From NCBI GenBank assembly GCA_973895155.1, contig OZ316892.1:4238510-4302509 (forward strand): DNA of 64,000 bases, in the 5' to 3' direction. This DNA is from Marsupella aquatica (taxonomy: Eukaryota; Plantae; Marchantiophyta). Of the stretch, positions 1 through 27,437 are shown in pieces; within the stretch, counting starts at the first letter, position 1, and every line of letters starts with the position of its first letter. Under the pieces are notes generated by a model. It made no database searches, was not told the DNA's origin, and was given only the letters and a program-made list of their open reading frames with translations. Made by a program: the position numbers and the translations under genes.

Positions 1-639
1 TCGTAAGAAAACCAAGACAAAAATGACTCCCGCGGAGACATCCATACTTGCATATCGAGGAAAGTCAATTAGAGAGAGAACAACGGAGACGAAGAGTATC
101 CATCTCTTTGAATTGACTGAGATATCCGATTTTGGAATAGTCATTTGCAATGGGGCTGTCCGTCTTGTGATGGCAAGAAATGATAAAGCTACAGTTTTGG
201 AGAGATAAAAAATTCTCGGGTGTTTCTTTGAGAAGAACATGAAAGTTAAAGAGTGTATAGAGGGATTGGTTCTGCTAGTCAGCGACGACCAACAGGAAGA
301 CAAAATAAGCATTTGTTTGGATCGAACGCAATATATAACCTTCAATCAGCCCAGAATCAATGATCTTCTAGGTGCAAGGCACGCCTTGGAAAAAGTTACT
401 AGTGTGGAATCTATCCTTCCGATCCAGAGGGATCAACGGGAGATTTAATTTGTCAATACATTATTGACGTACTTGAGTTCCAGAGAGTTCCTTTCAACCA
501 GGGATTTCGCTTGGGAAAGGCCCCGCCAGTGAGCAAGGTTGAAGTATACTTGGCGGAGAATCTTCTGAAAGTAATTACCTCAGTGAATGTCGGGGCTCTA
601 TTCGATTCTTTCCTCAAAGAATATAGTGCTGTGAATATA

Positions 640-1110
640 TTTAACAGCAAGTCATTTTTTGTTGAGATATCACGTTGTCATCTTGCACCGGACCACATCA
701 AGTGCCGAGAGTGGAATCAGGATTACACAGATAGGCTAAAGAATTCACTCCTCTCTCATTCGGCTATAAAGTTTGAGAAGCGATGCTGCTTTTTAGTCCC
801 TGTGAAGTGGGTTCAGTCGGAGGCCGACAGAGATCCCGACTACAATGGGGCGCCCTACGATTCATCGCCAAAGGAGGAGGACATTATGACCAGTCATTTT
901 TGGATACTCGGAGGCCAGCACACAATAATGGCGTACAAATTGCTAAGAGAGGACGACAAAGTCAGCCAAGTTGTACGAGACGCTTGCGGTACTGTAGAAG
1001 CTGTAATGTTTTGGGCAACGCTCAACAACGACAATAATGTTCATTTGATGGGATTATCGAAAGCTCTGAACCACTGTCATCAAACATCAATGGAAGAAGG
1101 ACAGTTTCTC
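640..1110 (+). other. ParB/Sulfiredoxin-like N-terminal domain within the polyprotein
   Basis: FFVEISRCHLAPDHIKCREWNQDYTDRLKNSLL...FWILGGQHTIMAYKLL follows the ParB/Srx pattern (P..Q.R.......L..S then hhh.GxH/R), similar to DGQHR-type members. Confidence 0.55.
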
Positions 1111-2109
1111 ACCATTGTACGACAGTGTCGTAATATCTGGAACTCATTTGGGCGGCCTGGATCACATTATTGTCATCCAAATTGGAAGGTATATAAATAT
1201 CCCTCTTCGATCACATTATCATTTAAACTTTTGTCACGCGAACGGTCGCGTCAAGCTTAGAATTGTCATGTTTCCATTGTTTTTCAGGTATTTATGAGAG
1301 CTACGAGTTTTGTTTGCCCATGGGCTCAAATGGGGAAGAACGAAATGATGAAATTTGGAGAATTGGCTCCGTTTCTCTTTACAATGGAGGACGAAACATT
1401 CAAGAAGTGGATGGAGGTCTACGAACTATCAAGGACAGGAGAGCTTGTAATTTACAACAGAATTTTATAGAGGGATGCCATCAAAATTGCGGATAATCCA
1501 TGTGCTTATCATCTTCTGAAGAAGACGTTCCGTTCTTGTCAAGGGTGCTCAGACTCGGTTCTTCGAAAGGCAGCGGAATATATGTTGAGCGGAAGACTGT
1601 CTATACTCAAAAACCGAAGCATCAAAGTGAAATCTAGGAAGGCGAGGAAGTCCTCTGAGGCTCCAGTGTTGTCAACGACCAGCATGAGTTTGGAGCAATT
1701 CTGTATAAAGAAGAAGACGAAAGTTGAGTTTGAGATTTTATTATTGAGTAAACTCAACGGGGAGACATCCACCCGGACGGAGCTGAAAAGTCTGACAGAT
1801 TCAGCGCAGAAATTGCGGGTCAAAGGAATGATTGATCGCTTTAAGCTCAACAAGATGGTGCTGAAGCAGTTGAGACATGCGATGAGTGGTTATCTGAAGA
1901 AGTGCTTAAATGTAAATATTAGTAATGATAATTTGTTGAAGGAGATCGACCCTATATTCTACAGGTTGGTGGAAGGAATACAGAAATCAGTTGATAGTCA
2001 AGGAAACCAACTAGTGCGGCCGGTCGGTGAGAGGCTGAAATTGCGATCCCTACAGGATATACAAAATGCTGGGTTTGCAGACTGTATCATACGTGAAGAC
2101 AAGAACCTT

Positions 2110-2725
2110 GCGAGCTTGATTTATTTTGATCCCTCATCAATGGGAGATTTGCGTCCGCCAAATTGCTCATTCTATGAGGGGTTATTTCGTGCTACTAGCG
2201 AGATAGGGGCAAAACCACACCATGTGGTTATTATTGTAGCCTCTCTCGTTGAGTCTTACTTAATCAAACGGGAATTAGGGAAGTACACACACTACGTTGC
2301 TGTCGATAGCCATTATATTCAGAAGCGGCCGAAGGAGAAGAAGCTTATTGTAACCTACGCTTTTCACAGCTTGGCCTTCAGCACAATGGGCGATCCACAA
2401 GCCCTCGAGTTCCAATTGGTCTCCAAATATCAGATTGAGAAGATAGCCAATTTTGAAGAGAGCGGCGAGTTCACGACACCTTCCCCAGAAAAGATACTTC
2501 CATTCTTTGAAAGTATTGTTAGTCAATTCGTCCAATGTGGGGAATGGGCTATATGCTTCGGTGAGGGAACAAACTTGATCCAGTGCTTAATGGTAAGTTT
2601 TGAGATTTATATTTTGGGGTTTCAATTTTAAGATTATTTAGATTATTATATTCTCAATTAATATTGTGAACTAATTTCGGCTTTTTTTACAAGATGCTGG
2701 ATCCAATGTAAAATATTACTGCCCT
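2110..2725 (+). other. Degenerate beta-class amino (N6A/N4C) DNA methyltransferase-like domain
   Basis: SLIYFDPS (motif IV-like, cf. LIxxDPPY) precedes PEKILPFFESIVSQFVQCGEWAICFGEGT-NLIQCLM/DAGSNVKYY (cf. xEKP..L...I...T..GD.VLDPF.GSGT...A...GR..IG), which is the beta-class motif order. Key residues are diverged. Confidence 0.4.
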
Positions 2726-3142
2726 GTGGCAACGCATAGGGAGTTGTCTTGTTTCTTGCAACACACCACGGCGACAATTGATACAACGCTGTCATTGATT
2801 GACCCAGTACGGGCTAGTATAGAAAAATGTATAGATAAATTAATGAAGTACCGTCCATCCGTAACTGCTCTCAGGGCTGATGTTTTGGATGTCCTCCACG
2901 AACAACATATCCCTGATAATATTTGTAATCAAATATTGCAAGAGTATGCACTCTCTGAAGATTCTGATCGATTGTACATTCGACCAACGGAGTACCCTAG
3001 TGGGCCAATCCAAGGTAAGTTACTTTTGAAACCTCTTACTTTTTATTGCGTCACGCAAACATGCGCGTGGACATTCATAATATTTCTTTTCACGCGAATA
3101 TGCGCGTGAGTCATTCTTATCAAATGATCTGATTTTATTCAG

Positions 3143-4040
3143 ATCAAGTCGACTGCGGCTTCAATGTTGAGGATGCAGGGAGCAATGGTGATGCGGATGG
3201 TGAGGGGGAAGGTGACGTGGAAAGTGACGCGGATGGGGATGTCAATGACCAAGATCCAGAGTGGATGACCGATACGCAGAATGACATCGGAGATTCCGAC
3301 AATAGAGGAGATGAAGAGAGTGACGGAGAGGAGATGAAGGACGCTGAGGACGAGGAGATGGAGGGTTCTGAGGACGCTGAGGACTCTGATGAAGAGGCCA
3401 CACAAGAGCCTCGACATGAGGTGGACCGAGAGGAGGCGACCCGGCAGGAGGAGGCCAGAGAGGAGGTGGCCTGGCAGGAGGAGGCCCGGCAGGAGGCGGC
3501 CCGACAGGAGGAGGACAGGCTGGAGGAGGCCCGGTAGGAGGCGGCCCGGCAAGAGGAGCTTCAAAAGAAGGAGGCGGCCCAGCAAGAGGAGGCGTCCCGA
3601 CAAGAGGCGGCCCGGCAAGAGGAGCTTCAAAAGAAGGAGGTTAAGAAGAAAAAGGCAGCAGCTAGAAAAGCAACTGCCGCGAAGCAGAAGGAGAAAGCCG
3701 AGGCTGAGAAAGCCCAGGCTGAGAAAGCCCAGGCTGAGAAAGCGGAGGCTGAGAAAGCCCAGGCCGAGAAAGCCCAGGCTGAGAAAGCCCAGGCGGAGAA
3801 AGCGGAGGCCGAGAACGCGGAGGCTGCGAGAGTCCTTTTAGTGACAGAGGGAAATAGGGCCAAGGCGGAGAGTGTGGCGGCTGAGAGGCTGCTGGCCGAG
3901 AGGATGGCGGACGAGACCGCAAGACCGGAGAGGGTGGAGGTGGAGAAGTTGGAGGCAGAAAAGGTCGATTCCGCAAGACTGGAGACAGAAGAAGCCGCAA
4001 GACTGGAGGCAGCGAGGAAGGAGGCCGAGAGGGCCAAGGA
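3143..4040 (+). repeat. Coding low-complexity block: D/E-rich segment, then QEEA(A)R and 15-bp AEKAQ/AEKAE tandem repeats (coiled coil)
   Basis: Repeated gaggcggcccggcaggag and gctgagaaagcccag units in frame with the polyprotein. Confidence 0.8.
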
Positions 4041-4949
4041 TCTTTCGCTTATTCCTAAGGCACAACGTCTACCAAAAATAAGGCTGAATTTGAAGAAGCC
4101 TTCTTCACCCTCAGTTGCAGTTAAGAAGAAAATATTAGACTATTTTCTTCGCCCGGAGTTTGAATTTAACGATCCACCCTTAAGTACGGTCTTGTTGGAT
4201 GATTGGAATAAATATTCACCGGAGCAGCTCTGAGTCCAGGCAGTCCTTGCTTTGCAATATTGGAAGGGTCTTTTGATTACCGAGGAGAAGACTGCCACTG
4301 CATCCAGAATGGAGACAATCATCAATAATGTCCGCTTTTCCGAGAATCGAGTGCAAGACCTGGGAATGTTTTTGGCACCAGACTCGGCTCAAGTCGTTAA
4401 GAGACTAACAGCTGACTTGACCCGACCGGGTTCGTGGTCTCGACCCCGATATATTGCAGAGGTCACTCGCGCAGAAATTGTGGCACCGGATATTTTGGAA
4501 TCGGATTCCCAGATTGTGGAATATTTGAATCAAATGCCACAACCATTTGAAGGTCTTCCCGCCTCATCGCTCCAACCTTCGCAAACTGGTCCGATGGAGC
4601 GATCACTGCGGTCTCGAGGAGGGCTGAAGGATGTTGTTGCGATTGAGGCACCCAAGAGATCAGCTGCAAAAAGGCCGGATCCACCCAATCCAAAGGTCAT
4701 TCGCAAGCTATAAGCTTAAAGTTTCTATTATAGACGTCATTATTTTATTATTGATTTGTTATTGTTTCTGTTTTCTGAGGTAGAACCCTTAGGCTACAAC
4801 CTCAGTACGTTATTTGAAGGCGTACTGAAATCTCTATTTTTTGCAGTTTTTTGAAAATTTGGCTAGTCGAATAGATCAATGCCTTGATCCTTCTAAGGAT
4901 ATGGAAGAGCTATTGACCAAGTTCTTACAACACTCGATCAAGAGGAAAC

Positions 4950-5530
4950 ATATGATGTGTCTGAGACCGCGCGAGTTGCTCACCGATGATATAATTAACG
5001 CTTATTTGAGTTTTCTCGAACTGATTCTCGATAGAGTTGGAAAGTCAGACCTTGTCAAATTCTTCCAAACACACCATTTTGAGCTTCTCTCCATGGATCC
5101 TACCATTTTCGACGAGGAGAGAGCAGCTTGGACAAAAGGAGTTTCCGCTAAAAATCAATGAATACGACAAACTGGTCTTTCCAGTACACAATGCTGTGAA
5201 AGAACATTGGTCATTGGTAGTCTTGTATCCGAAGGAGAAACGGCTGGAGTACCTAGATTCTCTAGTTCATAATCGACAAAATCCTGGGGTGCTAGATATT
5301 GTTGGGAAGTACTACGCCGACGAAATTGGCTGAAGAACTGGTGTCAACTTGGATCTCTCAGGTTGGGAACGGATATATCGGAATGATATTCCTCACCAGA
5401 GTGACAGCCACAGTTGTGGTGTGTTTATCTTGAGATACGCCAAGTGCTTGTGTCAAGGAAACGAAATTAATTTTTCCGCGGATCAAATTGAGAAATTCCG
5501 TAGGGAGATAGTCTTGTCGTTATTTGACAT
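4950..5530 (+). pseudogene. Ulp1/SENP family (peptidase C48) SUMO protease domain
   Basis: LRPRELLTDDIINAYL, FPVHN..EHWSLVV, YLDSL and PHQSDSHSCGVFILRYA give the His-Asp-Cys triad and the oxyanion Gln. There is one frameshift (~5150) and one TGA (5331). Confidence 0.9.
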
Positions 5531-5979
5531 GGACTTCCGCAAGCCGACGTCCGCAAGTAACCTAGTTACCGGGATCCGTGCTGCTATGATTGACATTTCC
5601 GGCGGAATTCCAGCACTGAACGACCGTCTTGTATAGGTAATACACTTCATTTCAGTGTCTCTCTTTGTAGTCACGCGACCGTTCGCGTTATAAACTTATT
5701 TTCATTTCTTAATGTTTTACAGAAGCCTATCCTGAAACCCCCTGATCGAGTATCGAAGGCACCAGTCCGGAAGTCCGGTGATCGTCTGGAGGCGGGAAAC
5801 AAACAGACCGTTCTAGTACGTTCTCCAAACCCTGCGGCACAAAAATCACAGGTACAGATGGCGCCTAATCCATCGGCAAAGAAGTCACCGGTTCATAAGA
5901 GACTTGTAATTTTCGATCTGAATCGGGTACTTATCTGGTCAGAGAAGATCAGCCCTGGGATGCCCATTCGGTCAAGGGG

Positions 5980-8900
5980 TGTAGCAAGGTGATAAAGAGA
6001 TAAATGACTATTTATTCCTTAACAACTCGATTTCGTTCCGGTTAGGAGTGGATAAGATCGAAAAGACCTAATTAACACAATTTGAGAAGTTTACACCAAT
6101 ATTCTTAGGTTGGAGAGATTTCTAATGATCTCCTTAACATAAGTGTTTAACCACAAACTCAAGTGGGTAATCCTTAAGATTCACAGTGCAATAATAAAGA
6201 CTAGAATTAACAAAGATTGAAACTAGAGAGAGTAGATAGGAGTTTTCAAAGTGCAAGGGAATTGAATTTCTGACCATCACCACTCCTTCAATAAGGATTA
6301 TGGTCTAATTTAAGATTCAGAAATCAACATTTTCTATGCTTTTTGATTTCTCGTAGCAACTCTTCTCCATCTCTTGAATTTAGAAGATATGAACGTAAAT
6401 CAACCCGGGACACTTTTCTGGTCCTGTTGAGGACGGTACTAGGATACTCGAATTGGCTTACTTCTCCTACAATCCTTAAGATTGCTTGGTTGAGTTTTGT
6501 GCAAATGTCAATTTCCTCTTTGGTGAATCTTCCAAATGTATTGGTCACAAATCTCATTGATCTTCCAATATCATTATAGGCACACTCTAGCATTCATTGA
6601 ACATTTCACAACAACTCAAGGGTTGCTAAACTTCTTCCTTTTACTCAACCATGGTAAAAGAAAGGAAGAAAGACATAGATTCCTTCAAAGGCAATGAGGA
6701 AATCAAAATGTATGTTTTTTCTCTCTCGGTTGACTTTGGGTTCTTCTCCTTTTGTACTAAAAGTGAAGATTATGAAAAGACATGCCTCTTCAAAATCCAA
6801 GTCTAAAGAAGTATGTAAATAAAAGTAAACTATCCTAGTCAAAAATAGATTAGAGACTACAATGGATACATCAACAAAATATTGGAGTCTACTTACTCAT
6901 ATGCTAGTCTACATAGCCATTTCTAAGTCTAAACTAATGTGGCTCTAACTCTCTAAATATGACTCTATTCTGGTCCTAGCTTTTGGGAAGGAACCTCCTC
7001 AGGGTTAGCCATGGCAAGGGGTTCTGGTCGAAGGAAAACTCCTTGCTGGCCAGTGGTAAAAGGGATGGACGGGTCAATATCCATGTTCTCCTGATGGGCA
7101 CTTGGGTCATGAGAATAGGTGTAAGAATGGGAGTGGAAGTGTGTACTGGGAGTGGGGAAACCAGGAGGGTTGAGGGGTGATGAGGGGCCAGTGGAATAAA
7201 CTCCTTCATGAGGACTAGGAGAGAAAGATCTGGTAGTAAAGGGAGGAATCTCAGTATCAGCTAATAGCTCCTCTGTAGTCAAGTCACTCATCTCCCTTAA
7301 GGCTTCACAGGTCTTTGAGAGGCCTGTAAGTGCTACATCCACCTTGGTACTCACATCTACCACTAAATGGTTAATCTTGGAGAAAAGGATGGGTGTGGTG
7401 TTCTTGGCCAAATACTCATCATAAATTTGGGCCTTAAGAAGATCCAGAGAAGCTATCTTAGTCAAAGGCTCAATCAGATCCAAAGATTGAGTGATATTGA
7501 GTTGGAGAGTATGCTCAAGCTCATTCTTCTTCTTACTCCTTTCCAATTGCTGTTTGAGTTCAGATACCTTCTTCTTGAGGAACTCATTCTCCTTCTCCAA
7601 CTTCTTCTTATCTGTGGCATCACTCATGGTGGAGATCTTCTCAAGAATCTGCCCTGGTTTCACTCCTAGCTTCTGAGAAATGTCGGTGATGACCTTCTCC
7701 ATCATAGTGGTCTTCCTCTTCACCTTCTGGAACGTGTCTGAGATGATCTGGAAATCAGCTAGGGTGTCTTGGGAGGCATGGCCGGGTGCATCCGGACATT
7801 CAGCCGGGTCGACGAAGGCCGGGTCGGAAAAGTCCGGGTCGAGGTTCCGGGCAGCAGACCGGGTCTTTCGAGGATTTGTCTCTGCTGGTTTCTCATCCTC
7901 ACTGTCATCAGAGGTGGCCTGGGTGATATCTGGATCTGTCTCTCCATACTTGATGAAGTTGTACTTGGCCAATAGTAATTTCTTCTCCTCTCTGAACAAA
8001 ACTCCTTCAAAGCTATATAGATGTACCAGGTAGCAGGATAGGGGAGTAGGACTCTTGTTGGATAGGTTCTGTACCAACTTCCTTATCAAATCAAAGATAA
8101 GCTTAGCCCAGTTGACTTTTCTTTCTCCCTTGTAAGCAGCAACAATGGTAGAGCCAACTCCAACAGTAACTCTTCTTGGCTTCTCAGGGTACAGTAGGGG
8201 TAGCAGAAAGCTGAAGACTCGTCTCAGATCAGGATCCAAACATTTAGAAACATTGAACCCGTCCTTACTGTTGATGGCTCCTTTGAAGTAAGGAAGGATT
8301 AGGTTGACAGCTCTCCCCACTGGACCTTCTCCTTCATCTTCCAATACAAAAGCTCCTGCAATCATCATCTGAGTCCATCGCTCAGGTCGGCCTCTGGAGG
8401 TATCCTTAAACTCAGCCGGATACTCCTTAGATCGGATCTCTCTGATCATATCTTCGCTCTGATAACTCCAAGATAGCTCCATCAGAGACTCACAGCCCAT
8501 CCTGAGCAAAGACTCCCTCAGTTTGACCTTCTCAGCTTCACTGTCCGAAATAGCTGGCCTCAGAATTTTCATGGCAATAGGGACCTCCTTTCTCTTCGAT
8601 CGTCTCACAGGGGCTTTAACCGGAGTAGGTGCAGGTGATGTTGAGGTTGAATGCCCCTTAGAGATGCGAGAAGTGGACATTCCGGTTGGATCCGTCCCTT
8701 GCTCCATAGGACTTATCGAAGCAGAAAATGGATTCCAAATAAATGGCTTGCCTCCTCGTCGGCGAGCTCTACAATGCTGCGACTTCAGAATGGTCAATCT
8801 CTTCGGTGTCGACCAATGGTAGAAATGTCCGGGTAGACCTGGCTACGGCGTTTCTGATCAACTGACAAGAGCTTCTGGAAACATTGATCAATATCCCGTC

Positions 8901-9576
8901 AATCAAAATTCAGGTGCATCGAACGTGGGGCAAAGATAGACTCAAACGGGCCTGCAATGTGGATGTCCGGATCGACCTGGCCTTCGTTCTCATCACCGAT
9001 GTATGCACGATCAAAATCTCAAACTTCCTACCTTCACTCCCAGCGGCGGAGTAGGCATTCCCCTCACAACGAATCAGTCAGTACCCTCATATCCAGGCTC
9101 TCATCAAGAAATTCAAGATTGGTCCTATAATCTGGACCCAAGATCCTCTACCAAAAGGGTAGAGCCTCCTCACTCTACTGCTTTAACAGCCTAATGCACT
9201 CGGGAACTCAAAACCTACTAAGTTCGGCTTTGAGAGGTGTGAGAGGCCGGATCGACTCTCCTTCCTTATATCCGGATTCTGCTGTGGTCGTGCCTGTGTT
9301 TGACTTATGGTTTTAAAAACTTTGGCAATGGACATCTGTTGTTGAGTAGAGTCTCGGTATAAGCTTTATATCTCATTCCAGGTTTATAACAAAAAGTTCT
9401 GGGTCGATCCTCCTTCTCTAATATCAATCCGGGTTGACCTCAGATGGGCTTGAAAGTCTCATAACACTTCATAGTAGTCTTCAGGTCCCTCTTTAGCCTC
9501 ATTTGAGATCTTAAACTTAAAAATTCAAAAATTTATGGCTAGTTAACCCTTCCTTCATAAACATCCTTATCTCACA
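5980..9576 (-). mobile_element. 3597-bp solo-LTR-like insertion (TG...CA) with AGGGG target-site duplication
   Basis: Begins TGTAGCAAGG and ends CCTTATCTCACA (imperfect short inverted ends). Flanked by AGGGG at 5975-5979 and 9577-9581. Precise removal restores the host reading frame. No gag/pol and no terminal direct repeats are seen. Confidence 0.8.
6965..8797 (-). CDS. Intact 610-codon retroelement-associated protein of unknown function (likely ATG at 8707) with a coiled-coil C-terminal half
   Basis: Uninterrupted ORF. Motifs RGRPERWT, FLLPLLYPEKPRRVT, VNWAKLI and PTPLSCYLVHLY resemble (from memory) a repeat-derived hypothetical protein family abundant in Marchantia. TATA-like ccggatataagg lies upstream at ~9263-9275 on the minus strand. 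Confidence 0.7.
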   Translation of the reverse strand: MTILKSQHCRARRRGGKPFIWNPFSASISPMEQGTDPTGMSTSRISKGHSTSTSPAPTPVKAPVRRSKRKEVPIAMKILRPAISDSEAEKVKLRESLLRMGCESLMELSWSYQSEDMIREIRSKEYPAEFKDTSRGRPERWTQMMIAGAFVLEDEGEGPVGRAVNLILPYFKGAINSKDGFNVSKCLDPDLRRVFSFLLPLLYPEKPRRVTVGVGSTIVAAYKGERKVNWAKLIFDLIRKLVQNLSNKSPTPLSCYLVHLYSFEGVLFREEKKLLLAKYNFIKYGETDPDITQATSDDSEDEKPAETNPRKTRSAARNLDPDFSDPAFVDPAECPDAPGHASQDTLADFQIISDTFQKVKRKTTMMEKVITDISQKLGVKPGQILEKISTMSDATDKKKLEKENEFLKKKVSELKQQLERSKKKNELEHTLQLNITQSLDLIEPLTKIASLDLLKAQIYDEYLAKNTTPILFSKINHLVVDVSTKVDVALTGLSKTCEALREMSDLTTEELLADTEIPPFTTRSFSPSPHEGVYSTGPSSPLNPPGFPTPSTHFHSHSYTYSHDPSAHQENMDIDPSIPFTTGQQGVFLRPEPLAMANPEEVPSQKLGPE

Positions 9577-10355
9577 AGGGGTGTGAGACAGATGCACAAG
9601 GTTATCTATCCAAGGCCTGATTTAATGGAATTTCTTGAGAAGGTGGCAGATCTATACGACATTGCGATCTGGTCGTGCATGTTCAAACGGAATATTCTAT
9701 CTTGTGTAAGGCTGATACTTCGACCCGAAGTTTTGAAACGTATTAAATTTATATGGGGACAAGAATCAACTCGACTTATTGGGAAGAATAATAATGACAT
9801 CCCCTTATTTGTCAAATATCTCTCGGACATTGCCGCCGATATTAAAGATTACAACATCGAGAATGTCATTCTTATCGATGACGCTGCATATAAGACGAGC
9901 CTTAATGACTTCTATTCATCGCTGTATCCCGATGCATATTCTGGGCTTGATGATGACCTATTTTTTAGAAAGAAACTATATCCATATCTATGCGACATGT
10001 CAATTGACAAGTTGACATTCCGCGAGCTCCTTAGTGGATATGGGATTCCAACGTTCTCTCAAGAAAATCTTGAGAAAGATTATATTGATAAGACGAATCT
10101 TTGGAGGAGAAATGTGATCATTCGTAATTAGGGGAATAAAGACCATTTAGAAAAGTTTGACGAATTTATGAAATACTTATCTGTCGAAAAAGACCGTGCT
10201 ATAGAAGCCCGAGATAAGTCCAATAAGTAAACATTTATTGTTTATTATCAATTATTATTTATAAATTGATTGAAATTGAACTTTTGGGAGTGATGCGCCC
10301 GGTCGCGTGGTTGTTTGCAATTACATAATATGAGAATCGAATTGTTCATTTACAA

Positions 10356-11063
10356 GTGTCTAAGTGGAGCAGGTCGCGTCAACTTCTAGTTTTAGGACTG
10401 GAAAACTTCCTGTGCTCTGTTTCAAAATATACTCCTCAGCTCAAGTCAACACCCGGAATTCGTATCAAATCTCTATGTGTCGTTTCGAGGCCGCATCTTC
10501 ATGATCTTATAAAATTCTGTTATGATCATTTTGATGTGATGGTCTGGTCTATTCTCAACGATAAACTGGTTTATCAGATACTTTCAGAAGTGTTATCGAG
10601 CACCGACCTGTCGTAGCTGATATATGTGTTCACGCGGGATCATTGCTGGAATCTTGGTTATGTGAAGAAAAATTATAAGACTGTTGTCTTCAAATCTATC
10701 GAGAGACTACGTGATATGTTTCAAGATTATCAACCAAAGAATATAATCCAGATTGATGCCTGTCCTTCCCATACATGCCTGACAGCTGTATGCGGATTAT
10801 TGTTCGCTAAGTCGTTTCAAGGATCATTGGATGATGTCTTTTTGAGGGATGACCTCATTCCATAGTTACGAAAGCTATCAAATTCAGGGCTTTGTCTTGT
10901 GTTCGCTAACAAGTTCGATTATCCCATCTGGTCGATTAGAAATCTACATCAAGATTGGGATCTGAACGAGGATATATGGGAGCATCTGTACGTGCAGAGA
11001 CATGCGGATCAAGTTCTTATCAAGCACTTCAACAGACGTCACTTATCAATGGCCAGAGTGTAG
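10356..11063 (+). pseudogene. FCP1/NIF-like paralog copy 2 (catalytic DxDxT lost)
   Basis: LLVLGLENFLC..RPHLHDLIKFCYDHFDVMVWS..FKSIERL..NIIQIDA, with in-frame stops at 10614 and 10863. The C-terminus DYPIWS..QRHAD..FNRR matches copy 3. Confidence 0.75.
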
Positions 11064-11176
11064 AGGATGTTTTCTCTGTAATATGTGACGCGACCATTCG
11101 TGTGACTACATCCATACGGGCTCATGCATCTTCTTGTGTTTCTTTATAGGAGATTCATTGCAGCAGAGAAAATGGG

Positions 11177-12025
11177 CTCATAGTTTTAGACGTGGAGCAT
11201 CTACTCTGTTACACTGCACCGCATTCCCAACTGATGGCGGTCTCAACTGGAATTTGGATTGGGAATATATACGTTTTTCCAAGGCCTCATCTTCACGAAT
11301 TCTTGAGATTCTATTTTGAGAATTTTGATGTAGGGATCTGGTCCTCTCTTGGGAAGAACCTTTTAGATCAGATTTTAGCATCTATTTTTACTGCGATGGA
11401 AATGGCCTCATTTAAGTATATTTGGGATCAGTCTCATTGTTACTTATGCGATTGGGTGACATCAAATAAGCGGATATTTTTGAAGTGTTTTGAGAAGGTT
11501 GGAATTTATACAAAGGCATATCTGCAGCAAAATATAATGCTTATCAAATCCGATGCATTTCATGCTTGTTTAGATCCTGTTGTTGGATCATTATTTCCGC
11601 CCAAATATTTTGGGTCGGTCGACGACAGTTTCCTGATTAACTTGTTGATTCCGTATCTTAGCAAGCTAGCAAACTCTTGTGAGCCGCTTGTCATTGCCAA
11701 TGGAAGAGATTATCCAGATTGGTCAGTTAAATCTATTTTTAGAGATTATGATTATAATCATACTCTATGGGAAGACCCTGTGATTCAGAGGCATGGAGAT
11801 AGATATCTAGTAGAGCAATTTAACAGACGCCCAATTTTGGACGCTTCCAAAATAAATAGTCGGCATGAGATCAGATTAATTTGTATTGTCGTTCTAGAAA
11901 CTATTTGTAAACTCCTTATATACTGGTTATCATATATAAAGGATCTCAAAGATTTATTTCTCTATTATTATTATTCGCGTGAGCATGTCTCTTGGTCCCG
12001 TCAAGTTGGATTGGTTAAAATGTGA
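11177..12025 (+). pseudogene. FCP1/NIF-like paralog copy 3 (catalytic motifs degenerate)
   Basis: LIVLDVEHLLC..FPRPHLHEFLRFYFENFDVGIWSS..WDQSHC..FLKCFEKV..DDSFL..LIPYL. Similarity to copy 2 ends near 11835. Confidence 0.75.
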
Positions 12026-12995
12026 CGTTGCAGTCATTTTCAGGGTTTCACGCGCAGCCACGCGTCATGTCGCCCCCTTTTTATTAAAATAATAATATTT
12101 AGTGATTTTCGGAATTTCCAAAGTTCGGTTTTCCTTAAATTGGGGTTCATGATGCTTTGGGCCACATATGTAAATGAAAAGAACCTGGTTGGCCAGAATA
12201 CACAAGTCCTACTTGCTATGAATTTCCTTCTTGCAGCCTTGTCTTTTAGGTTCAATTTATGTTTCCTGGAGATGGGGTCTCCTACTCCAACTTGCATGCA
12301 AAATCAGGGTTCTTGCTTGTAGAATTCAAAGTGTCACAAAGCTACATCTTCTAAGTACATTTACAGGTACAAGAATGTGTGGTTCACAAGAGGTGGGTGA
12401 TATTGTTAGTGAGCGTAAGACTCTACCGGAGGAGGCATTTCAGAACATTTGGTGCGCTTCATGTTACATTATGCAATAATGAGTTGCTGTTGCTGTGCTT
12501 GCATCAAATTGGGCCAAATACATGTGGTGGAGTTCATTTGGCATTGTGCAAAAAAGTATCATGCTGGCTAACATCAGAATTTGAGCAAAAGTATATTGAC
12601 AATATTTGAGCAAATGAAGCACCAAATATCAAACTCAATTTCTGAACAGTATTTACCTAAGTATTATTCACACAAGGCCACTGACAAGTAGTGGTGAATT
12701 TGGTAAACTTATATCCCACTACATCCCATTTATTGTTACACAATTAGACTTAGTTAGTCTAGTTCTGGTGACGAGGCCTATTGTGACCAAAATAATTGTA
12801 ATTACATATGTTTTCTCATCATGAATCATTTTTTACTGCATGATTTAGTATCATCTTCATGACAGTCAAAATGAGTTCTCATACAGGAATGACCCAGCCA
12901 TTTGCCTGAGTACTAGTGAATTTTGGTTTCCCCCCGGGTTTCCCAGTCTCATTCGATGGTCATTGCAAGGTTCTCTTGGATTTTCGGTATCGATA

Positions 12996-13161: not shown

Positions 13162-13807
13162 AGCGGAAAGCAATGTTGATGTGGCATAGAAGGGGAGGTT
13201 ACGTTTGTGACTCATAAGCCAAATAACTAGGGGAATTTAAAGGTTTTTCCTTATAGCCTGGGTGGCAGAATACTTTGTAAAGGAGAAGATGATGAGAATC
13301 TTCCTGATCAAACTTTGTATGTTGATTTGTGCGAGTAAGAGCTACCTAGATTTCTGATGGTAAGATATTCCTACTACTGGCTACTGGGATGTTAAGTGGG
13401 CTAAAACAAACAAAAAAACCTGGCAACTTTTTGTATGAAGTAGCCAAGTTAGGTGAAATGGATTGTTTTTGCTGCCAAAAAAGGCCACGTGTCAATTCAA
13501 ATGGTCAGGAGAGCTCCCTACTGTCTTCCCAGAGCAAAACCTGGTGTACTCAGGTTACTAAAATAAGTCAACAATGTTTTCAATAAAGTAAAAAAGTGCT
13601 AGTATTTTGTTCTCTCCTAACCTGGTGGACAGTGGAGATTTAAAGTTCAGTAGTGTTTGCACAAACAATGGATGAGTCATCAAAACGAAGGATTTGGACA
13701 CTTGGACAGGGAAGGGAGCTGGCCATGCCCTAAGTCAGTCATTACTCTAACCGTAATGAGGGGGATGCCAAGGCAGGGCTAGTGACTAGTCAGTGCTATA
13801 AGACAAA

Positions 13808-13927
13808 TGGTTTTATCGTGGGATAGAAATCCATTCAACTTGACACAATTGGTTTTATCATGGGATAGAAATCCATTCAACTTGACACAATTGGTTTTAT
13901 GATGGGATAGAAAATCCATTCAACTTG
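13808..13927. repeat. 42-bp tandem repeat, ~3 copies
   Basis: Unit tggttttatcgtgggatagaaatccattcaacttgacacaat. Confidence 0.9.
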
Positions 13928-15028
13928 CGGGCATATGTCACATAGCACAAGACAAAATCATTTCAATTTTACCGATTGTCTTTTTTACCAAGAATCTTCC
14001 AGATTGACCCATGCATTCTCCTCGTCAACTAGATAACATATGCTGTTCTCTTTCTTTGTTTTTTGGCGCTAAGGAAATATTTCCTTTGTCTTTTGTGGAG
14101 TCTCCACTGACTTTACCTTTTGTCATGTTGGGCCCTAATCTTGTTTAGTTAATTAAGTGTTTGCTTGCGAGTAAAGACCCAGATTGTTTTACTCAACTCA
14201 TGCATACAAGTTGCATAGCATCTCATTCGAAACTTTCTCAAGTGACTACTTGTCAAAGCGATGTTTATATATTGGCTCATAGCCAAATATGTCACTTACC
14301 TTTGTATTGGTAGCAAACTATTTTTGGGTGGGAATCTGGCAAAATTGGCCAAAGAAAGAAAGCCTCTGCGCTGACGGGAAACAGGGAGGCAAAGAACTAA
14401 GGCAGGATCTGAAATGAGCGAGAGTTGAAATGAGAAGTTAAATAGGGGATGAGCTTGGCCAGATGGAACAGCTATGTAGGGGCAGTCGAGAAAGTATTAT
14501 TTTGAGTTTAATTCTATGGCTACCGTAGCAAGAGTGAGGGTGGCTTTACAGGCCTTGGGGGCACTTGTGATATATTTTCACCAATTCAAAATTGGAGGGC
14601 CACATCTTGTCCAGGCCCAAAATAATTTGAAATGAAATTAAACAAATGCAAATCCCTTGAATGAAGGAACCCAAAGTTTGGAAACTACATCTTGATCACC
14701 CGTTTAAAATACTACTAGATAATATAGAGTTGTACGTAACTAAAGAGGATGATAGACACAGTGAGGAGTCCGATTACAGGCTAAAATTGCTAAAATTGAG
14801 TACCGTAAAGTCTGTGGAGAAGTTGTTTAACCCAGAAACTACCAGGTGAGATATATCCTCCACAAGTGCTGCATGCAGGTGGTCTCTATTCCTTCAAAGT
14901 TTAGTTTGTCTTGAAGTTTAGTCTCGTATGAAATCTGGGTGACTTTTAGGGGAAAGCAAGTCTAGGAGGCCTAAACACAGTTTCTCCCAGGTATAGGACA
15001 CTTACTCACCTGTGAACTTGACTTGAAA

Positions 15029-15277
15029 TTCTGGTTGACTCCTCTGGTTTCAGCCACTATTTACAACTCTAATTAGTCAAATGCGGTTTGCACAGTGCTC
15101 TAGATAGTAACTGATGTGAGCTTAAATAAGATGACTAGGGAGTTCTGGTTGACTCCTCTGGTTTCAGCCACTATTTACAACTCTAATTAGTCAAATGTGG
15201 TTTGCACACTGCTCTAGATAGTAACTGATGTGAGCTTAAATAAGATGACTAGGAGGTAAATAAGATGACTAGGGAGT
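15029..15277. repeat. 114-bp tandem duplication
   Basis: ttctggttgactcctctgg...gatgactaggg starts at both 15029 and 15143. Confidence 0.9.
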
Positions 15278-15452
15278 TGACAAGTCTCCCTAACAACTGG
15301 ATTTCAATGAGTGTGCAAGCTAGTGCGAGAGTGATGAGTTAGGCGTGGAAAAGGTGCATAGTGGCACCTTTAGGTCTGTCATTTTGTTTGGAAAAAATGT
15401 CACCATAATTGAATGGCCAGGAAAGCTTCCGGCCAGATCAATAGTTCATTAA

Positions 15453-15870
15453 CAAACCATGAAACAGAATGAGCAGGATTGCATTATTAGTGTTTAGATC
15501 AGATAGATAACCCATGAGAAAGAATGAACTACAGTGGATAGGGACACCATGACAAAGAATGAACTATGTTTAGGTAGCTAGAAAATGAAACCATGAGAAA
15601 GAATGAACGGGATTGCATAAATTGTATTTAAATAGATGGATAAACCATGAGAAAGAATAAACTGGATTGCAAGTGTTTGAAAGATAGATAAACCATGAGA
15701 AAGAATGAACGGGATTGCATAAATTGTATTTAAATAGATGGATAAACCATGAGAAAGAATAAACTGGATTGCAAGTGTTTGAAAGATAGATAAACCATGA
15801 GAAAGAATGAACTATGTTTAGATAGATAGATAGAGAGACCCATATTATACTGTTTAGATTAGATAGTAAA
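15453..15870. repeat. Minisatellite of ~45-55-bp units upstream of STR
   Basis: Recurrent core aaaccatgagaaagaat(g/a)aac, about 8 copies. Confidence 0.85.
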
Positions 15871-16532
15871 TCACTTCACATCTGCATTTCCTTGGCCCCA
15901 GTGCTTGTCGCCATAGCCCACTGCTCGCAGGAGCTCCGTTCTCGACGTCGTTTGCACTCGAGGACAGAACTTCGTTGGTGTTTAATTCCTCGAACGATGT
16001 CTTTTCACAACGAATACACCAGATTTTTGAGCGAGACTTTGTTTTGACCGCCGAGAACTGAAAATCCCCGCACCTACTCCGGATTGTAAGGCATCAGCGG
16101 CGGCGCTGAATAATCTGAATCTGGCTCGCCGAAATGCGAGCTACGTACTAAAGCTTTGCTTGTAAAGTGAGGGATGGGAACCTTGTGTGAACCGGGTTCT
16201 AATTTTGTCGAAAAGTGTATCGATGCGAGCTCGGTAGTAAGAGCTCGTTGCATCTAGATTGAAGCTTCAGATTCAAGAAGGTGCGATTTCTTGCGCTGCT
16301 GTACGTATTGCCTTTGTCAGTAATTATGCTGAAGTAGAATACAAGTTTAGATTAAAGAAGGCGCAATTTCACTCTGCACTTTGGAAATTTTTAATGCTAG
16401 CTTAGAGGTTCAGATTCTGAAGATTGCGACTCAATTCAAGCTTTACTTTGAAATTTGTAATGCTGGACTGAAGGTCTTTAGATTCACGGACTGGACGGCA
16501 GGGAATCGAAGGACAGGAAGTTATTGAAGAGC

Positions 16533-19500
16533 ATGGCGTCTCAAGAGATTGAACGGTGGCCAAGTTTCAACTTCCCGCAACTTGCTTCGGCGGAGCGGAC
16601 ACACCCAAATGAGCATCAGGAGCAGCCCGATGTCTTAGCTACGGAGCTTGGCAACCTGGAGACGCTTCTCGCAATAGACGACAATCTGGCGCGGTCGCAT
16701 GCGACTCCTGAAATTCACTATGACGAAAAAGGTCAGGGACGAGCAGGACACAATTCTACGACGCGTCTCACTACAGACGACAATTCTATCACGCCGCAGA
16801 AAAGAACTCCTGACAATTCTCACTATGAGGAAAGAGGCCAGGGGCGAGGAGGTCACAATTATTCGACGTCCCTCACTTTAGACGACACTTTAGAAGACAC
16901 TTTAGACGACACTTTCATGCCGCCGAACGGGAGTCCTGAAAATCACTATGAGGAAATAGGACACAATTCTAAGGCACCTCGGGACCCGTTGCTGCATCAC
17001 ATCCGTGGCACCGGCGTAGAGTTCCAGGACCTATGCTACACAGTGGTAAAAAAGCAGAAGCAGGATGGGGTGTGGATCAAGCGCGAGGCGCATCTTCTCC
17101 AGGGAATCACGGGGGCTGCTTCCAAGGGGGAAGTAACAGCAGTCCTGGGACCGAGTGGAGCAGGCAAGTCCACTTTGATGGATGCTTTGGCCGGGCGCAT
17201 CGCCAGTGGAAGCTTGGGAGGAACGACCACGGTAGATGGACGGCTTGTCACCCCGACTCTCATGAAGAGACTGTCTTCCTACGTCATGCAAGACGATCAA
17301 CTCTTTCCACTGCTCACCGTTTGGGAGACCCTGTGGTTCGCGGCAGAAGTGCGCCTGCATCGGGGCATATCACGTGACGAGAAGCGAGACCGAGTCACAA
17401 ATCTCCTAGATCAACTCGGGCTCACAGTGCGTACTCGATCGTTAACTGCTAATTTAGCAATTCTGCCTTTCCATTCGCATAGAAATTTGTATGTTTGGCG
17501 TGTTTAAATGATCGATGACAACTCTAGTTAACCAACAAATCAACAGCAAAAGAATTTTTAAAACGCATTCCGTGAGTACTCACCGACTCTAGCGCGAATC
17601 AGATGCGCTTTAGTACGCATACACCGGTGGTTACCTGAGCCACAAACAACAAACTCAATTATCCCATTCCTACTGGAGTTTAAGCCAGTTCTATTTAGCC
17701 TGATTCGAACCAACAGAACTCAAATAAAATCATATTCGAATAGAATTTTGCTCCCACTTAAGAATATGCCGATCGGCCTGGGGATTGGATATTTGAGTAA
17801 AATTGTTTACCAGCCTGAAGGGGTTAGTGAGGACATTGATTCATGCTGTCAAACTCGGAAGTTAAAATTCAGAGATTGCCCTCGGGACAAGCCTACTGCT
17901 AGATGAGTCCAGAAATTTTGGAGAGAAATTTTGGAAACGCAACGTTGTTTATCTATGCATGCATAGGCAGATCGCCAGAAAGATAACTTCGCTGAGCAAA
18001 GATGAAATTGTTCTGGGGTTAACAGAACTGGTGCCTATGTACCACGACTTGCTTCCTCGATCAATTGGTGGACTTTGACTGCAACAAGTTAGTTTCATAA
18101 TAACGTAAGAGAGTGAATTCTATGACGTACATCTCTGACCAAAAATCGTTCTCTCTCGATCAGACAGCACAAAATACGTATATTGGAGACGAGAAAACAA
18201 GGGGAATCTCCGGCGGGGAAAAGAGAAGAGTATCGATTGGAGTGGATATCATCCACGGCCCTGCGTTGCTGTTCATGGACGAGCCTACAAGCGGTCTTGA
18301 CAGTGGAAACGCGTTCAACGTCATCGAGAAAGTGCACCGCATTGCCAAGGCGGGAAGCACAGTGATTCTCACAATTCATCAGCCTTCTTTTCGTATTCTG
18401 CGGTTCGTCAATCGTCTCATCGTCTTGGCAAGGTACCGTGTAATTCCTACAGCTCATTCAGCTGTATTGTCGGAACGATTGGCCCTGCTTTCCTAATTTT
18501 ATCAAATCACATTTGCGTATTATTTTTCCGTAGTTGATCATAAATGTGGAGCTTTAAAATCTGAATATCAGAGAGCGTGAATACTCAATCTAAAGTAAAG
18601 ATGATGTGTCTTATGAATTGAACAACTAAGTGCTATCTTAGATTACTCGGGTAGCAATGGTGGGTTCAATGACTTTTAATGGTCAACAAAACATAATAGG
18701 AGCAAATTCAACGAGAAACGCAGAAGCATTTGTTTCCGTCCGCAGGCTTGGAGGTGGTTGCCGAAGATGTCTGATGGAAGCCCTTGCACAAACCAAGCCT
18801 GCTTACAGGACTCCAAAGGCCCCTAGGATTTAGAAGCTCGACAGAGCCTGCAGTTCGAGATAATCCAAAGTGATTGGCTTCAAGCCAGTGAGAAACTTGT
18901 GGCTCTCAGACAACAAAGAAACTTCAACGGGCTGTGGTACTGATCATGCGGATGGCGTGGATTCTGCAGAGGGCAATTGATATACCAGGGAGGTCCAAAC
19001 TACCTCTCTACACACTTAGCTGGATTCGGGCGCGTAGTGCCTCGTGCAGAGAACCCGATGGAGTACCTTCTTGATGTAATCCAGGAGTACGACAGTTCCG
19101 CTCATGGGATAGAGCCTCTTGTGCTGTACTATAACGACGGCACCCAGTTGAACCCCAACGATCCCGAGTTTTCAACAAGTCCTGTAAGAGGCAAGAGAAC
19201 CGCAGTTAGCGAATTCATGCAGAGGGAACAGCCCCCCATGCCAGAAAGAAACATGACATCGGAGACGATATTGTCAAAGATCGCGCATCCATTCCTGCAC
19301 TTAGGTAAACCAAAGACACCCGACTACACTTTCGAGGCGATGGAGGGCGGCTACGGGCTTTATGACGATACAGATGACGGATATGATCATTCGCTTGATA
19401 GAAGCCCGAAACTGGCCTCCCATTTCTACAAAGGCCTCATAGAAGGTCTGGCGGACAGATTCTTGACCCCAACCTGGACGTCCCCCAGAACGGGCACGAC

Positions 19501-26700: not shown

Positions 26701-27275
26701 CTTTTCAGAGAGATTATGAACCATTTGATGTTCTGAAATCTGCTGTGCTAGAGGTATGTCGAGGAGCTTAGTGGCGCAAAGTTCATCTTCCCACTTCCAT
26801 GGCAGCCGACGAAATTCAATAGGGATACATCGTGGCGAAATGTAGGCAGCCTTGGTTTTCTCCCAAGCACAAAACGAGGCACAAAACAGGCCTGATGCCA
26901 TGCCAAAGCGGTCAAGCACCAACTTGCTTAGAACTGTCCATGAATTGCATCGCTGCCCGAATGAGTAAGGCTAAATCATCCGCAAACAAATTGTGAACAT
27001 TATGGACAGCCAAGTGTTGAATGTCAACCCCTTGAATGGAGCCCCTGCAGACTTCTCTGCTCAAAATGCAGCTGAGGGAGTCGATCGCGATGAGAAATAG
27101 CAGAGGGGACAAGGGACAGCCCTGTCTCACTGACCGAGCGAGCTTAAAGGGTGATGCCATCCTCCCGTTGATCAATCCTGCCGAGGATGCAGAGGCGTGA
27201 GATGCCTTCAGGAAACGCATGAGAAGCCCAGCAAACCCCGTCTTCTCTAGGATTGCAAGCAAGAAACATGAATTT
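23746..27275 (-). mobile_element. 5'-truncated, frameshifted L1/Tx1-type LINE (RT, zf-RVT, 3' region, poly(A)-like tail)
   Basis: RSVRQGCPLSPLLF, LFADD, ITKPRSQGG and CTRCELNQHEDIVHCIFECP on the minus strand. The T-run at 23746-23770 may be the tail; the link between 23770 and 24780 is inferred. Confidence 0.8.
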
Positions 27276-27437
27276 CTTTTTGACCAGATGGCAATTTGTA
27301 AACAAACAATTGGGCAGAATGGGCAGAATGGGTGGGATTGGATATTATAGTGTGTAGACAATGTTAAATGTGGACCATATAGTGAATGGAAATGACTGCA
27401 GTTGGCTTTACAATAACTTGGGGGCTCATTTGGGTAT

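Follow-up and report, generated by a model that had tools for sequence, protein, structure and literature searches.

The locus

The window is the whole stretch of 64 kb analysed here, taken from the liverwort Marsupella aquatica. Its first part holds a defunct copy of an accessory gene, which belongs to a transposon-like plant element present in many copies and is interrupted by a nested insertion. The features are as follows (position 1 is the first nucleotide of the window).

1..12119, plus strand: right part of the multicopy mobile element, whose left end lies upstream of the window
1..1188, plus strand: exon 1, whose 5' part is outside the window; an N-terminal domain of unknown fold precedes the ParB/Srx fold
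640..1089, plus strand: ParB/Sulfiredoxin-fold domain; conserved R, GGQH(T/S) and N, with a matching predicted fold
1234..1253, no strand: palindrome in intron 1
1288..2592, plus strand: exon 2, with a stop at 1468; helical region followed by the greater part of the methylase fold
2020..2725, plus strand: beta-class amino-methyltransferase fold; motif IV degenerate (D kept, PPY lost)
2693..3014, plus strand: exon 3; end of the methylase fold and linker, placed by phase and by the acceptor AG of the contigs
3051..3109, no strand: two palindromes (3051 and 3090) in intron 3
3143..4695, plus strand: exon 4; acidic tract, 15-nt repeat arrays and linker; stops at 3535 and 4231
4847..5636, plus strand: exon 5; Ulp1/SENP domain, broken by a frameshift near 5150 and by stops at 5331 and 5634
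5205, 5256, 5397 and 5415, plus strand: Ulp1 catalytic His, Asp, oxyanion Gln and Cys, aligned to SENP2
5671..5690, no strand: palindrome in intron 5
5723..5979, plus strand: 5' part of exon 6, encoding a basic linker and the opening strand of HAD/NIF domain 1 (DLN motif)
5980..9576, minus strand: nested insertion of 3,597 bp with TGT...ACA ends and a 5-bp AGGGG duplication
9582..10226, plus strand: exon 6, 3' part; remainder of HAD/NIF domain 1 (Pfam NIF 35.7 bits); stop at 10129
10227..10372: predicted intron 6, phase 2
10291..10310, no strand: palindrome in predicted intron 6
10373..11057, plus strand: predicted exon 7; HAD/NIF domain 2, motif GLE (NIF 43.8 bits); stops at 10614 and 10863
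11058..11149: predicted intron 7, phase 0
11086..11105, no strand: palindrome in predicted intron 7
11150..11851, plus strand: predicted exon 8; HAD/NIF domain 3, motif DVE (Pfam NIF 50.4 bits)
12048..12067, no strand: palindrome in the 3' subterminal region, about 50 bp from the right end
12119 (+/-1): right end of the element, minus-strand terminal letters GG; depth drop, flank contigs starting at 12120

The assignment to a mobile element made in an earlier note is supported by many related copies that share a sharp right end. Summed contig depth, compared between the last high bin and the next one, drops 36- to 78-fold at about 12119 in runs X1, X2 and X4 (X5 has no cover beyond this point), and single contigs of run X1 reach a depth of 434-476 inside the element versus 16 outside. 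The left end and the transposase lie outside the window, and the mobile element is known here by its right end alone; the hallmarks of Mutator elements (MULEs) are a MULE transposase, terminal inverted repeats and a target site duplication of 8-11 bp (PMC6446971). The window copy is decaying, 18 of its 23 listed differences from the contigs being C>T/G>A, and is thus not protected at present.

Reading frame

Five introns (1189-1287, 2593-2692, 3015-3142, 4696-4846 and 5637-5722) had been proposed to merge positions 1..10230 into a single frame, and their phases (0, 0, 1, 0 and 0) are indeed compatible. Four of them are GT-AG as they stand in the window copy; the acceptor of intron 2 reads AA there and AG in all covering contigs listed, from two runs. 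With breaks written as X, this span gives about 2,020 aa with seven internal stops (206, 1468, 3535, 4231, 5331, 5634 and 10129) and two frameshifts (about 410 and 5150). The extent of the frame had to be revised: homologue P0023 aligns from its residue 13, which places the gene start upstream of the window, and the frame probably runs past 10230, where two more NIF exons can be joined through GT-AG introns of fitting phase, neither having an in-frame Met ahead of its first motif. These exons probably extend the predicted protein to about 2,480 aa encoded in eight exons. All seven introns measure 86-151 nt with matching phases, six being GT-AG in the window copy and the seventh in the contigs.

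Several lesions of this copy are absent from its relatives. Exon 1, broken by the stop at 206 and the frameshift near 410, is in one frame in homologues P0002, P0006 and P0056, and P0003 and P0005 have Gln at the position of the 1468 stop. High-depth contigs carry a sense codon at 206 and one base fewer at 11854, the latter giving a stop directly after HAD/NIF domain 3 (both among the 40 of 1,246 differences listed). The stop at 3535 sits within the repeat arrays of exon 4, which encode EEARQ and EKAQA and are predicted to form a coiled coil.

Gene models from outside the window support part of the frame. Intron 1 is present in five Calypogeia models and intron 2 in one, P0039, which aligns across it weakly (20% identity, E 3e-8) and shares with locus L001, described below, the acidic tract after the methylase fold. 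Introns 3-7 are predicted from sequence alone; among the relatives found, no homologue or gene model crosses them. The longest of 44 relatives has 489 aa, and searches for longer proteins with the ParB exon and with NIF1 returned nothing, which is weak evidence.

Domains of the predicted protein

The ParB/Srx-like domain claimed for exon 1 was recovered at the level of predicted structure. For the modelled fold of 640..1089, VIA ranks 1-8 all belong to the ParB/Srx superfamily (Z 8.4-5.5, the top Z thus being only 8.4; best match 3.1 A over 99 residues), and ParB occupies the top Foldseek rows in the PDB and viral sets, with a probability of 1.00 but an E of only 6e-3. Pfam and NCBIfam gave no ParB match in the window or in 45 homologues, and profile searches of PDB sequences returned unrelated rows only. 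Among aligned family members the ParB-type upstream R is kept in 12/12 and the N in 18/18, and xG(Q/M)H(T/S) occurs in 13/13. In CTP-dependent ParB clamps the arginine of the GxxR motif binds phosphate; this last arginine is found in none of the 13 members, all of which have T/S in its place, and a CTP clamp is therefore doubtful. The helical region of exon 2 likely holds the ParB-type DNA-reading part: in a low-confidence Atlas model of homologue P0056 (residues 215-541, pLDDT 0.54), residues 225-541 match ParB_N and HTH_ParB clusters with a TM of 0.50.

The predicted fold that follows resembles beta-class amino-methyltransferases, as had been suggested. Foldseek matched it to M1.HpyAVI (E 8e-6) and VIA to MboIIa (Z 12.1, 3.3 A over 161 residues), VIA ranks 1-19 being all beta-class or MT-A70 (Z 12.1-8.2). 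The model has the permuted Rossmann arrangement of the beta class, with motif IV before motif I, and its last strand appears to lie in exon 3. Pfam and NCBIfam found no N6_N4_Mtase match in the window or in 45 homologues. An active methylase is not what the motifs indicate: the motif IV aspartate is kept in 9/9 aligned family members and a motif-I-like F(G/S)(E/K)G in 8/9, but the catalytic (D/N/S)PP(Y/F/W) occurs in 0/9 and is absent from L001 too, so that the fold is likely disarmed. Liverworts possess a working bacterial-type 4mC enzyme, and those of Marchantia have TSPPY (10.1101/2021.02.12.428880); judged by this motif, a kinship to Marchantia DN4MT1 as an active enzyme was rejected.

The Ulp1 protease with an intact triad stands as described, exon 5 scoring 62.9 bits against the Peptidase_C48 cut-off of 20.7 in Pfam. 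Its alignment to SENP2 (E 3e-13) includes the triad, the H, D and C as well as the oxyanion Q being present in a window copy that is nonetheless frameshifted and stopped, and all 14 matches of known structure are SENP1/2/3/5 or yeast Ulp1.

The single FCP1/HAD domain of the earlier note proved to be three, all above the Pfam NIF cut-off of 21.8 bits. The catalytic motif of FCP1/SCP CTD phosphatases is DxDx(T/V). None of the three domains has it, their motifs, read in the window copy alone, being DLNRV, GLENF and DVEHL; the domains also score far under the NCBIfam FCP1 and dullard cut-offs. The best match of known structure to the third is UBLCP1, with an E of 0.0011, and the FCP1/SCP phosphatases and UBLCP1 share the NIF profile but not the degenerate motifs. 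The HAD fold was thus retained, and the dephosphorylation of the Pol II CTD that had been attributed to it is unsupported. As the catalytic motifs of both the methylase and the HAD domains are degenerate, "DNA-MTase" and "CTD phosphatase" hold as names of folds only.

Family palindromes and CpG content

The non-coding DNA of the element contains a 20-bp palindrome, TSACGCG-N6-CGCGTSA, with seven matches in the 64 kb at up to 2 mismatches. Chance was rejected as their origin by shuffle counts (mean 0.10, maximum 1 in 100 shuffles). All seven fall in the non-coding 12.5% of the element (rough p 5e-7); at the same threshold none occurs in the nested insertion or in 12.1-64 kb. In intron 3, which has two of them, the contigs show a better left arm at 3057.

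A second family has a different palindrome. Loci L001-L005 came from a metagenome scan with the distant homologue P0033 as query, a first scan having yielded no locus. They resemble the window family in the ParB domain (27% identity), in exon 2 (E 1e-20) and in having introns 1 and 2 at matching places. A 22-bp palindrome is found in them 32 times when up to 5 mismatches are allowed: 31 copies are intronic or upstream of the gene and one is unassigned. The 10 Markov controls have none. At the thresholds used neither palindrome occurs in the other family, except for one 3-mismatch match at chance level in L004.

The element also retains CpG. The observed/expected ratio reaches 0.86 and 0.98 in the element; the nested insertion has 0.42, and the six flanking blocks, leaving aside the ABCG gene, range over 0.37-0.71. 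At codon positions 3-1 the element gives 0.72 and 1.04 versus 0.24, 0.41 and 0.55 in three other mobile ORF sets; two host genes give 0.87 and 1.01. Retention is weaker in L003-L005 (0.53-0.70), and a young age of the family or a CpG-rich donor could account for it instead.

Comparison with known systems

Bacterial ParB, Noc and KorB likewise have a ParB/Srx fold followed by a helical region, at 8-16% identity, and parS-type palindromes are of similar size to the one found here; phage proteins that fuse ParB to a methylase are comparable too. Unlike bacterial ParB, the window protein has the GxxR arginine replaced and is encoded by an intron-containing plant gene, and no ParA was seen.

With the algal-type systems of Ectocarpus and Bostrychia the element shares an architecture, the likeness being architectural: a ParB-like domain with a chromatin effector, multiple copies and inverted repeats. 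The accessory protein of Sola1-1_Ec32 of the brown alga Ectocarpus also combines a ParB-like domain with an N4C/N6A methyltransferase on a transposon, and was suggested to bind the element that encodes it and to modify it (PMC12477816). It has 1,104 aa, whereas the window protein is about twice as long and has lost the catalytic motif; the main text of that article contains neither "Ulp1" nor "palindrom" and names no HAD domain, and its supplements may add domains. PAG3/PAG2 of red-algal Plavaka elements are ParB-like accessory proteins as well, with family inverted repeats and proposed self-targeting (10.1101/2025.02.11.637652). Their effector domains vary, the effector being a 2OG oxygenase, with the methylase in a separate gene with SET; the Plavaka repeats form tandem arrays beside the gene, whereas the window element has its sites scattered through introns and has Ulp1 and HAD as effectors. 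The architecture, which the earlier note did not know as described, is therefore partly published, ParB with an amino-methyltransferase being reported for brown- and red-algal transposons, and the Ulp1 and HAD tail is what stays new. The literature consulted yielded no account of a transposon in which ParB or a methylase is joined to Ulp1 or NIF; the algal supplements may list more domains.

VANC proteins bind motifs in introns and intergenic DNA of their own family (PMC5735166), and some VANCs of VANDAL MULEs (KAONASHI, KIU) carry Ulp1 (PMC13317346). The likeness comprises family motifs in non-coding DNA, a repeat-rich variable region, the Ulp1 fusion and, judging indirectly from the CpG content, possibly hypomethylation (PMC5735166, PMC13317346). 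VANC motifs are 9-nt, non-palindromic and in tandem, whereas those of the window element are 20-bp palindromes and dispersed; family-specific motifs in the non-coding DNA of the element are common to both. The VANC-associated Pfam families are DUF287/DUF1985; no such family matched any segment in the Pfam scan. Since the DNA-reading module is ParB-like, the likeness to VANC would be convergent.

Proposed role and alternatives

On balance we lean towards a self-targeting, VANC-like anti-silencing protein that docks on the palindrome of its own family. The eight exons would yield one protein of about 2,480 aa, whose ParB fold and following helical region would dimerize on the palindrome in the manner of ParB on parS, and whose methylase fold would serve as a non-catalytic DNA- or protein-binding module. 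Ulp1, carried on a long acidic and coiled-coil arm, would deSUMOylate chromatin or silencing proteins at the element, with the three HAD domains acting as phospho-protein readers or atypical phosphatases rather than canonical CTD phosphatases. As with VANC, the protein would act in trans, so that family members carry little CG methylation and stay transcribed. The anti-silencing effector proposed earlier thus gains two lines of evidence, the family-specific intronic palindromes and the CpG retention, and loses CTD dephosphorylation and the active methylase.

The palindrome-binding protein might instead serve transposition or inheritance (end synapsis, targeting or a partition-like bias), with Ulp1 and HAD tuning transposase or repair factors. 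Partition is the known job of ParB, a palindrome is present close to the right end (at about 50 bp), and ParB-like features are common to DUF3723 (Atlas score 0.96, for homologue P0056), a conserved gene of fungal Starships (10.1101/2021.12.13.472469). This is rather unlikely, as six of the seven sites are intronic and far from that end, as in VANC, and element-wide CpG retention is predicted by anti-silencing and not by a role in transposition.

Somewhat less likely again is a set of two or three independent cargo genes (ParB-pseudo-MTase-acidic, Ulp1 and NIF repeats) in place of one polyprotein. Besides the lack of outside support for introns 3-7, such a division would fit the weak donors of introns 4 (GTCATT) and 7 (GTGTAG), the stop that the exon 4 frame meets 18 nt beyond the former, an in-frame Met upstream of the Ulp1 domain, the missing palindrome in intron 4, and L001 and L004, whose possibly incomplete sequences show no Ulp1 or NIF. 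Against it stand the uniform size, GT-AG borders (one in contigs only) and matching phases of all seven gaps, the absence of a Met before the first motif of NIF2 and NIF3, and the little space left for promoters. An active 4mC/6mA writer that marks the element encoding it, on the model proposed for Ectocarpus Sola1-1, would draw on the clear beta-class fold, its retained aspartate and motif-I-like sequence and the working liverwort enzyme, but is very improbable given the loss of the PPY-type motif that the Marchantia enzymes keep.

The anti-silencing reading has a bolder form, offered tentatively: a land-plant transposon family may have built, independently of VANC, a five-module machine in which a bacterial ParB/parS-like address within its introns brings a SUMO protease and three phospho-readers to all copies of the family, erasing CG methylation there. 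If so, swapping the palindrome and its reader would re-address the machine, and convergence with Ulp1-bearing VANC would show deSUMOylation to be a general escape route from silencing. The function of Ulp1 in VANC is called unknown in a review (PMC13317346); with a further DNA reader, unrelated to VANC, that is fused to Ulp1 and has a short and evident target, the question would become directly testable in a liverwort model. Algal-type ParB accessory genes would persist in land plants with their effectors swapped and the methylase disarmed, which argues for docking rather than methyl writing as the conserved core. Targeted epigenome editing could also make use of such a reader, given its known 20-bp site and its modular effectors.

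The nested insertion

The insertion flanked by a target site duplication, which had been removed to join the two parts of exon 6, was verified by its empty site, seen as a 3,602-nt skip in three of four runs. It contains one antisense ORF of 625 codons, without a family match in Pfam or NCBIfam. A complete LTR element was rejected, there being no internal direct repeats; its ends suggest an LTR-retroelement-like insertion.

The element and its gene

The feature proposed in the earlier note, one spliced gene at 1..10230 with ParB-like, DNA-methyltransferase-like, Ulp1 and FCP1/HAD domains, is real and represents a novel variation on a type of transposon gene that was described recently; its predicted product has methylase and CTD-phosphatase folds yet fails both catalytic tests. 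The gene lies in a mobile element: summed contig depth falls 36- to 78-fold at 12119/12120 in three sequencing runs, while coverage in the fourth stops there. Single contigs of run X1 have a depth of 434-476 inside the element versus 16 outside, depth not being equivalent to copy number. The assignment as "Mutator-like", from the terminal GG, is a guess, and the transposase and left end fall outside the window. One X4 contig, at the depth of a single copy, replaces most of 11106-12119: it connects the palindrome region of intron 7 with 12119 through 10 different letters, which resembles a terminal deletion allele carrying filler DNA.

Up to 6 kb, and again from 9.6 to 11.9 kb, the window has many short plus-strand ORFs, with AT-richer gaps of 86-151 nt between them. 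Phase is kept across all five proposed introns; intron 2 ends in AA in the window copy and in the acceptor AG in all covering contigs listed from runs X1 and X4.

Introns and nested insertion of the gene
1189-1287, plus strand, phase-keeping intron (phase check of gaps)
2593-2692, plus strand, phase-keeping intron (same check)
3015-3142, plus strand, phase-keeping intron (same check)
4696-4846, plus strand, phase-keeping intron (same check)
5637-5722, plus strand, phase-keeping intron (same check)
5980-9576, nested insertion, TGT...ACA ends, AGGGG duplication
10227-10372, plus strand, predicted intron between NIF1 and NIF2, GT-AG, matching phase
11058-11149, plus strand, predicted intron between NIF2 and NIF3, GT-AG, matching phase

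The duplication-flanked insertion within the gene was confirmed by its empty site, present in 3/4 runs (depth 1,048 in X2). Its ends are LTR-like and its target duplication is 5 bp long, but there is no internal repeat. It is multicopy by itself (in X2 and X5 its depth exceeds that of the host element), and its 625-codon antisense ORF had no Pfam or NCBIfam match; it is possibly a very large solo LTR holding a gene.

The proposed single frame reads through as ~2,020 residues when spliced over the original span with X at each break, and is interrupted here by seven stops within the frame and by two frameshifts. In high-depth contigs the codons at 206 and 5634 are sense codons, loose ends skirt the frameshift near 410, and one contig over 5030-5474 has a single gap. 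The window copy is thus a pseudogene, while other copies lack several of these breaks. The gene is probably also longer than proposed: two further HAD/NIF domains (NIF2, NIF3) follow the original span at 43.8 and 50.4 bits (cut-off 21.8), with 22-37% identity to NIF1 and to one another and no Met ahead of the first strand in either. With the two introns predicted from sequence, eight exons would encode a protein of ~2,480 residues.

Domain folds and catalytic motifs

The structure model of exon 1 (pLDDT 74, 22 sequences) matches the ParB/Srx superfamily: ranks 1-8 of the VIA structure comparison all belong to this superfamily (Z 8.4-5.5; next unrelated row 4.8), and ParB ranks first in Foldseek searches of the PDB (E 6e-3, probability 1.00) and of viral models (E 4e-4). 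The exon 2 model (pLDDT 74, 16 sequences) matches the beta-class amino-methyltransferase fold, by Foldseek (E 8e-6) and by VIA, whose ranks 1-19 consist entirely of beta-class and MT-A70 entries, with a top Z of 12.1 at 3.3 A over 161 residues. Since both models find these matches, the two folds on which the earlier note had staked its reading are upheld.

Both claims are nevertheless limited by motif losses. The canonical forms are the GxxR arginine in ParB and PP(Y/F/W) in the methylases. Among aligned family members the ParB-type R is kept in 12/12 and the N in 18/18, and the GxxR arginine is replaced by T/S in 13/13; in the methylase domain D is kept in 9/9 and PP(Y/F/W) in 0/9, so that the fold stands and the catalytic motif does not. 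The Ulp1 triad is intact as claimed, His, Asp and Cys, plus Gln, all being in place in the alignment to SENP2. The FCP1/HAD domain holds as a NIF fold and fails the catalytic test of CTD phosphatases, the motifs of the three domains being DLN, GLE and DVE; the sole solved match of NIF3 near significance is UBLCP1.

Palindromes and CpG content

The 64 kb contain seven copies of a 20-bp dyad, TSACGCG-N6-CGCGTSA, against a mean of 0.10 and a maximum of 1 in shuffled sequence; the count is partly post hoc because the pattern was picked after examples had been spotted by eye. Six sites lie in introns 1, 3, 3, 5, 6 and 7, and one ~50 bp from the right end. A distant family at five metagenome loci (L001-L005) provides an independent test, L001 and L002 being near-identical and the five thus not independent cases. 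It shares the ParB exon and both intron positions, has an exon 2 that is homologous at E 1e-20 and likewise lacks the catalytic motif, and carries a different 22-bp palindrome in 32 copies, 31 of them upstream or intronic, with none in 10 controls or in the window. A palindrome that differs between protein families yet keeps to non-coding DNA is as expected if the element encodes its own reader. At L001 1232-2096, upstream of the gene, stands an array of nine such palindromes, several at 39 bp spacing; the corresponding region of the window element lies outside the window.

The element has CpG observed/expected ratios of 0.86 and 0.98; the ratio is 0.42 for the nested insertion, 0.37-0.71 for six flanking blocks and 0.96 for the ABCG gene. 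At codon positions 3-1 they are 0.72 and 1.04 in the element, 0.87 and 1.01 in two host genes, and 0.24, 0.41 and 0.55 in three other mobile ORF sets. In this comparison, uncorrected for element age, the element resembles host genes and not other mobile ORFs, which suggests that its lineage had little CG methylation through its history. Counting against this reading, 18/23 listed differences between window copy and contigs are C>T/G>A, and the signal is weaker in L003-L005.

Proposed function and alternatives

We lean slightly towards a protein that docks on its own family's palindromes and blocks silencing of the element. Docking, probably as a dimer, would rely on the ParB fold together with the adjoining downstream helical region; an Atlas model of the homologue P0056 aligned to ParB_N + HTH_ParB clusters at TM 0.50, with low confidence. 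Further contacts, to DNA or to protein, would come from the disarmed methylase, and the acidic and coiled-coil arm would bring to chromatin on the element both the SUMO protease and three HAD domains, acting as phospho-readers or atypical phosphatases. A role in transposition or partition, to which the ParB fold and the dyad close to the right end might be put, is unlikely, most of the window's palindromes being intronic.

The homologue search found one close relative (54%) and 44 representatives; 5/20 looked up were named, all from Calypogeia fissa, as is the cluster member P0056, which makes a liverwort host likely. Because many unspliced gene calls stop just beyond the donors of introns 1 or 2, these two positions are conserved. 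Intron 1 is bridged in five Calypogeia models (P0008, P0010, P0012, P0025, P0056), which are automatic gene models and not transcripts, and the P0039 alignment spans intron 2, weakly, reaching the acidic tract. No covering protein was found among homologues for introns 3-7, searches for longer proteins included. Separate genes rather than one protein are, with the frame kept across the gaps, somewhat less likely than a role in transposition or partition. An active methyl writer, as the fold might imply, is very improbable with the catalytic motif lost in all aligned members.

The silencing-blocking protein would most likely work like a Ulp1-bearing VANC. VANC binds motifs specific to its family that lie in introns and between genes (PMC5735166), and Ulp1 is present in some VANCs with its function given as unknown (PMC13317346). 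The DNA-reading module here differs in being ParB-like, without a VANC-type family match. Other reports describe Ectocarpus Sola1-1, an element that encodes a 1,104-aa protein with ParB and N4C/N6A methylase domains and a proposed role in modifying that element (PMC12477816); red-algal Plavaka elements with ParB + 2OG oxygenase adjoining inverted-repeat arrays (10.1101/2025.02.11.637652); a precedent for inactive methylase domains on transposons in DIRS1 (PMC4738411); and retrotransposon DAMs that keep the catalytic pocket (2026 preprint, 10.64898/2026.05.21.726589). No description of a Ulp1 + HAD tail on a ParB-methylase transposon gene was found in the literature searched. For P0056 residues 215-541 (~ window 640-1600), the top Atlas feature matches (0.96) are fungal clusters of DUF3723, a conserved Starship cargo gene (10.1101/2021.12.13.472469). 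DUF3723 may thus belong, broadly speaking, with the ParB-like accessory proteins.

Other features of the window

Features outside the element
13803-13928, 15029-15823 and 52488-53003, short non-coding tandem arrays, units of 42, 48-55, 114 and ~121 bp
16482-21377, half-size ABCG transporter gene (ABC_tran, ABC2_membrane)
24800-27450, minus strand, broken LINE with RT fragment
48923-51165, non-LTR retrotransposon, RT and C-terminal zinc-finger/endonuclease-like ORF
62464-63441, AP2/ERF gene

The ABCG gene, which may resemble the STR/STR2 mycorrhiza genes, has an internal 57-bp repeat exon. The 3' 390 bp of the retrotransposon at 48923-51165 are repeated at 35975-36363 with 96-99% identity.
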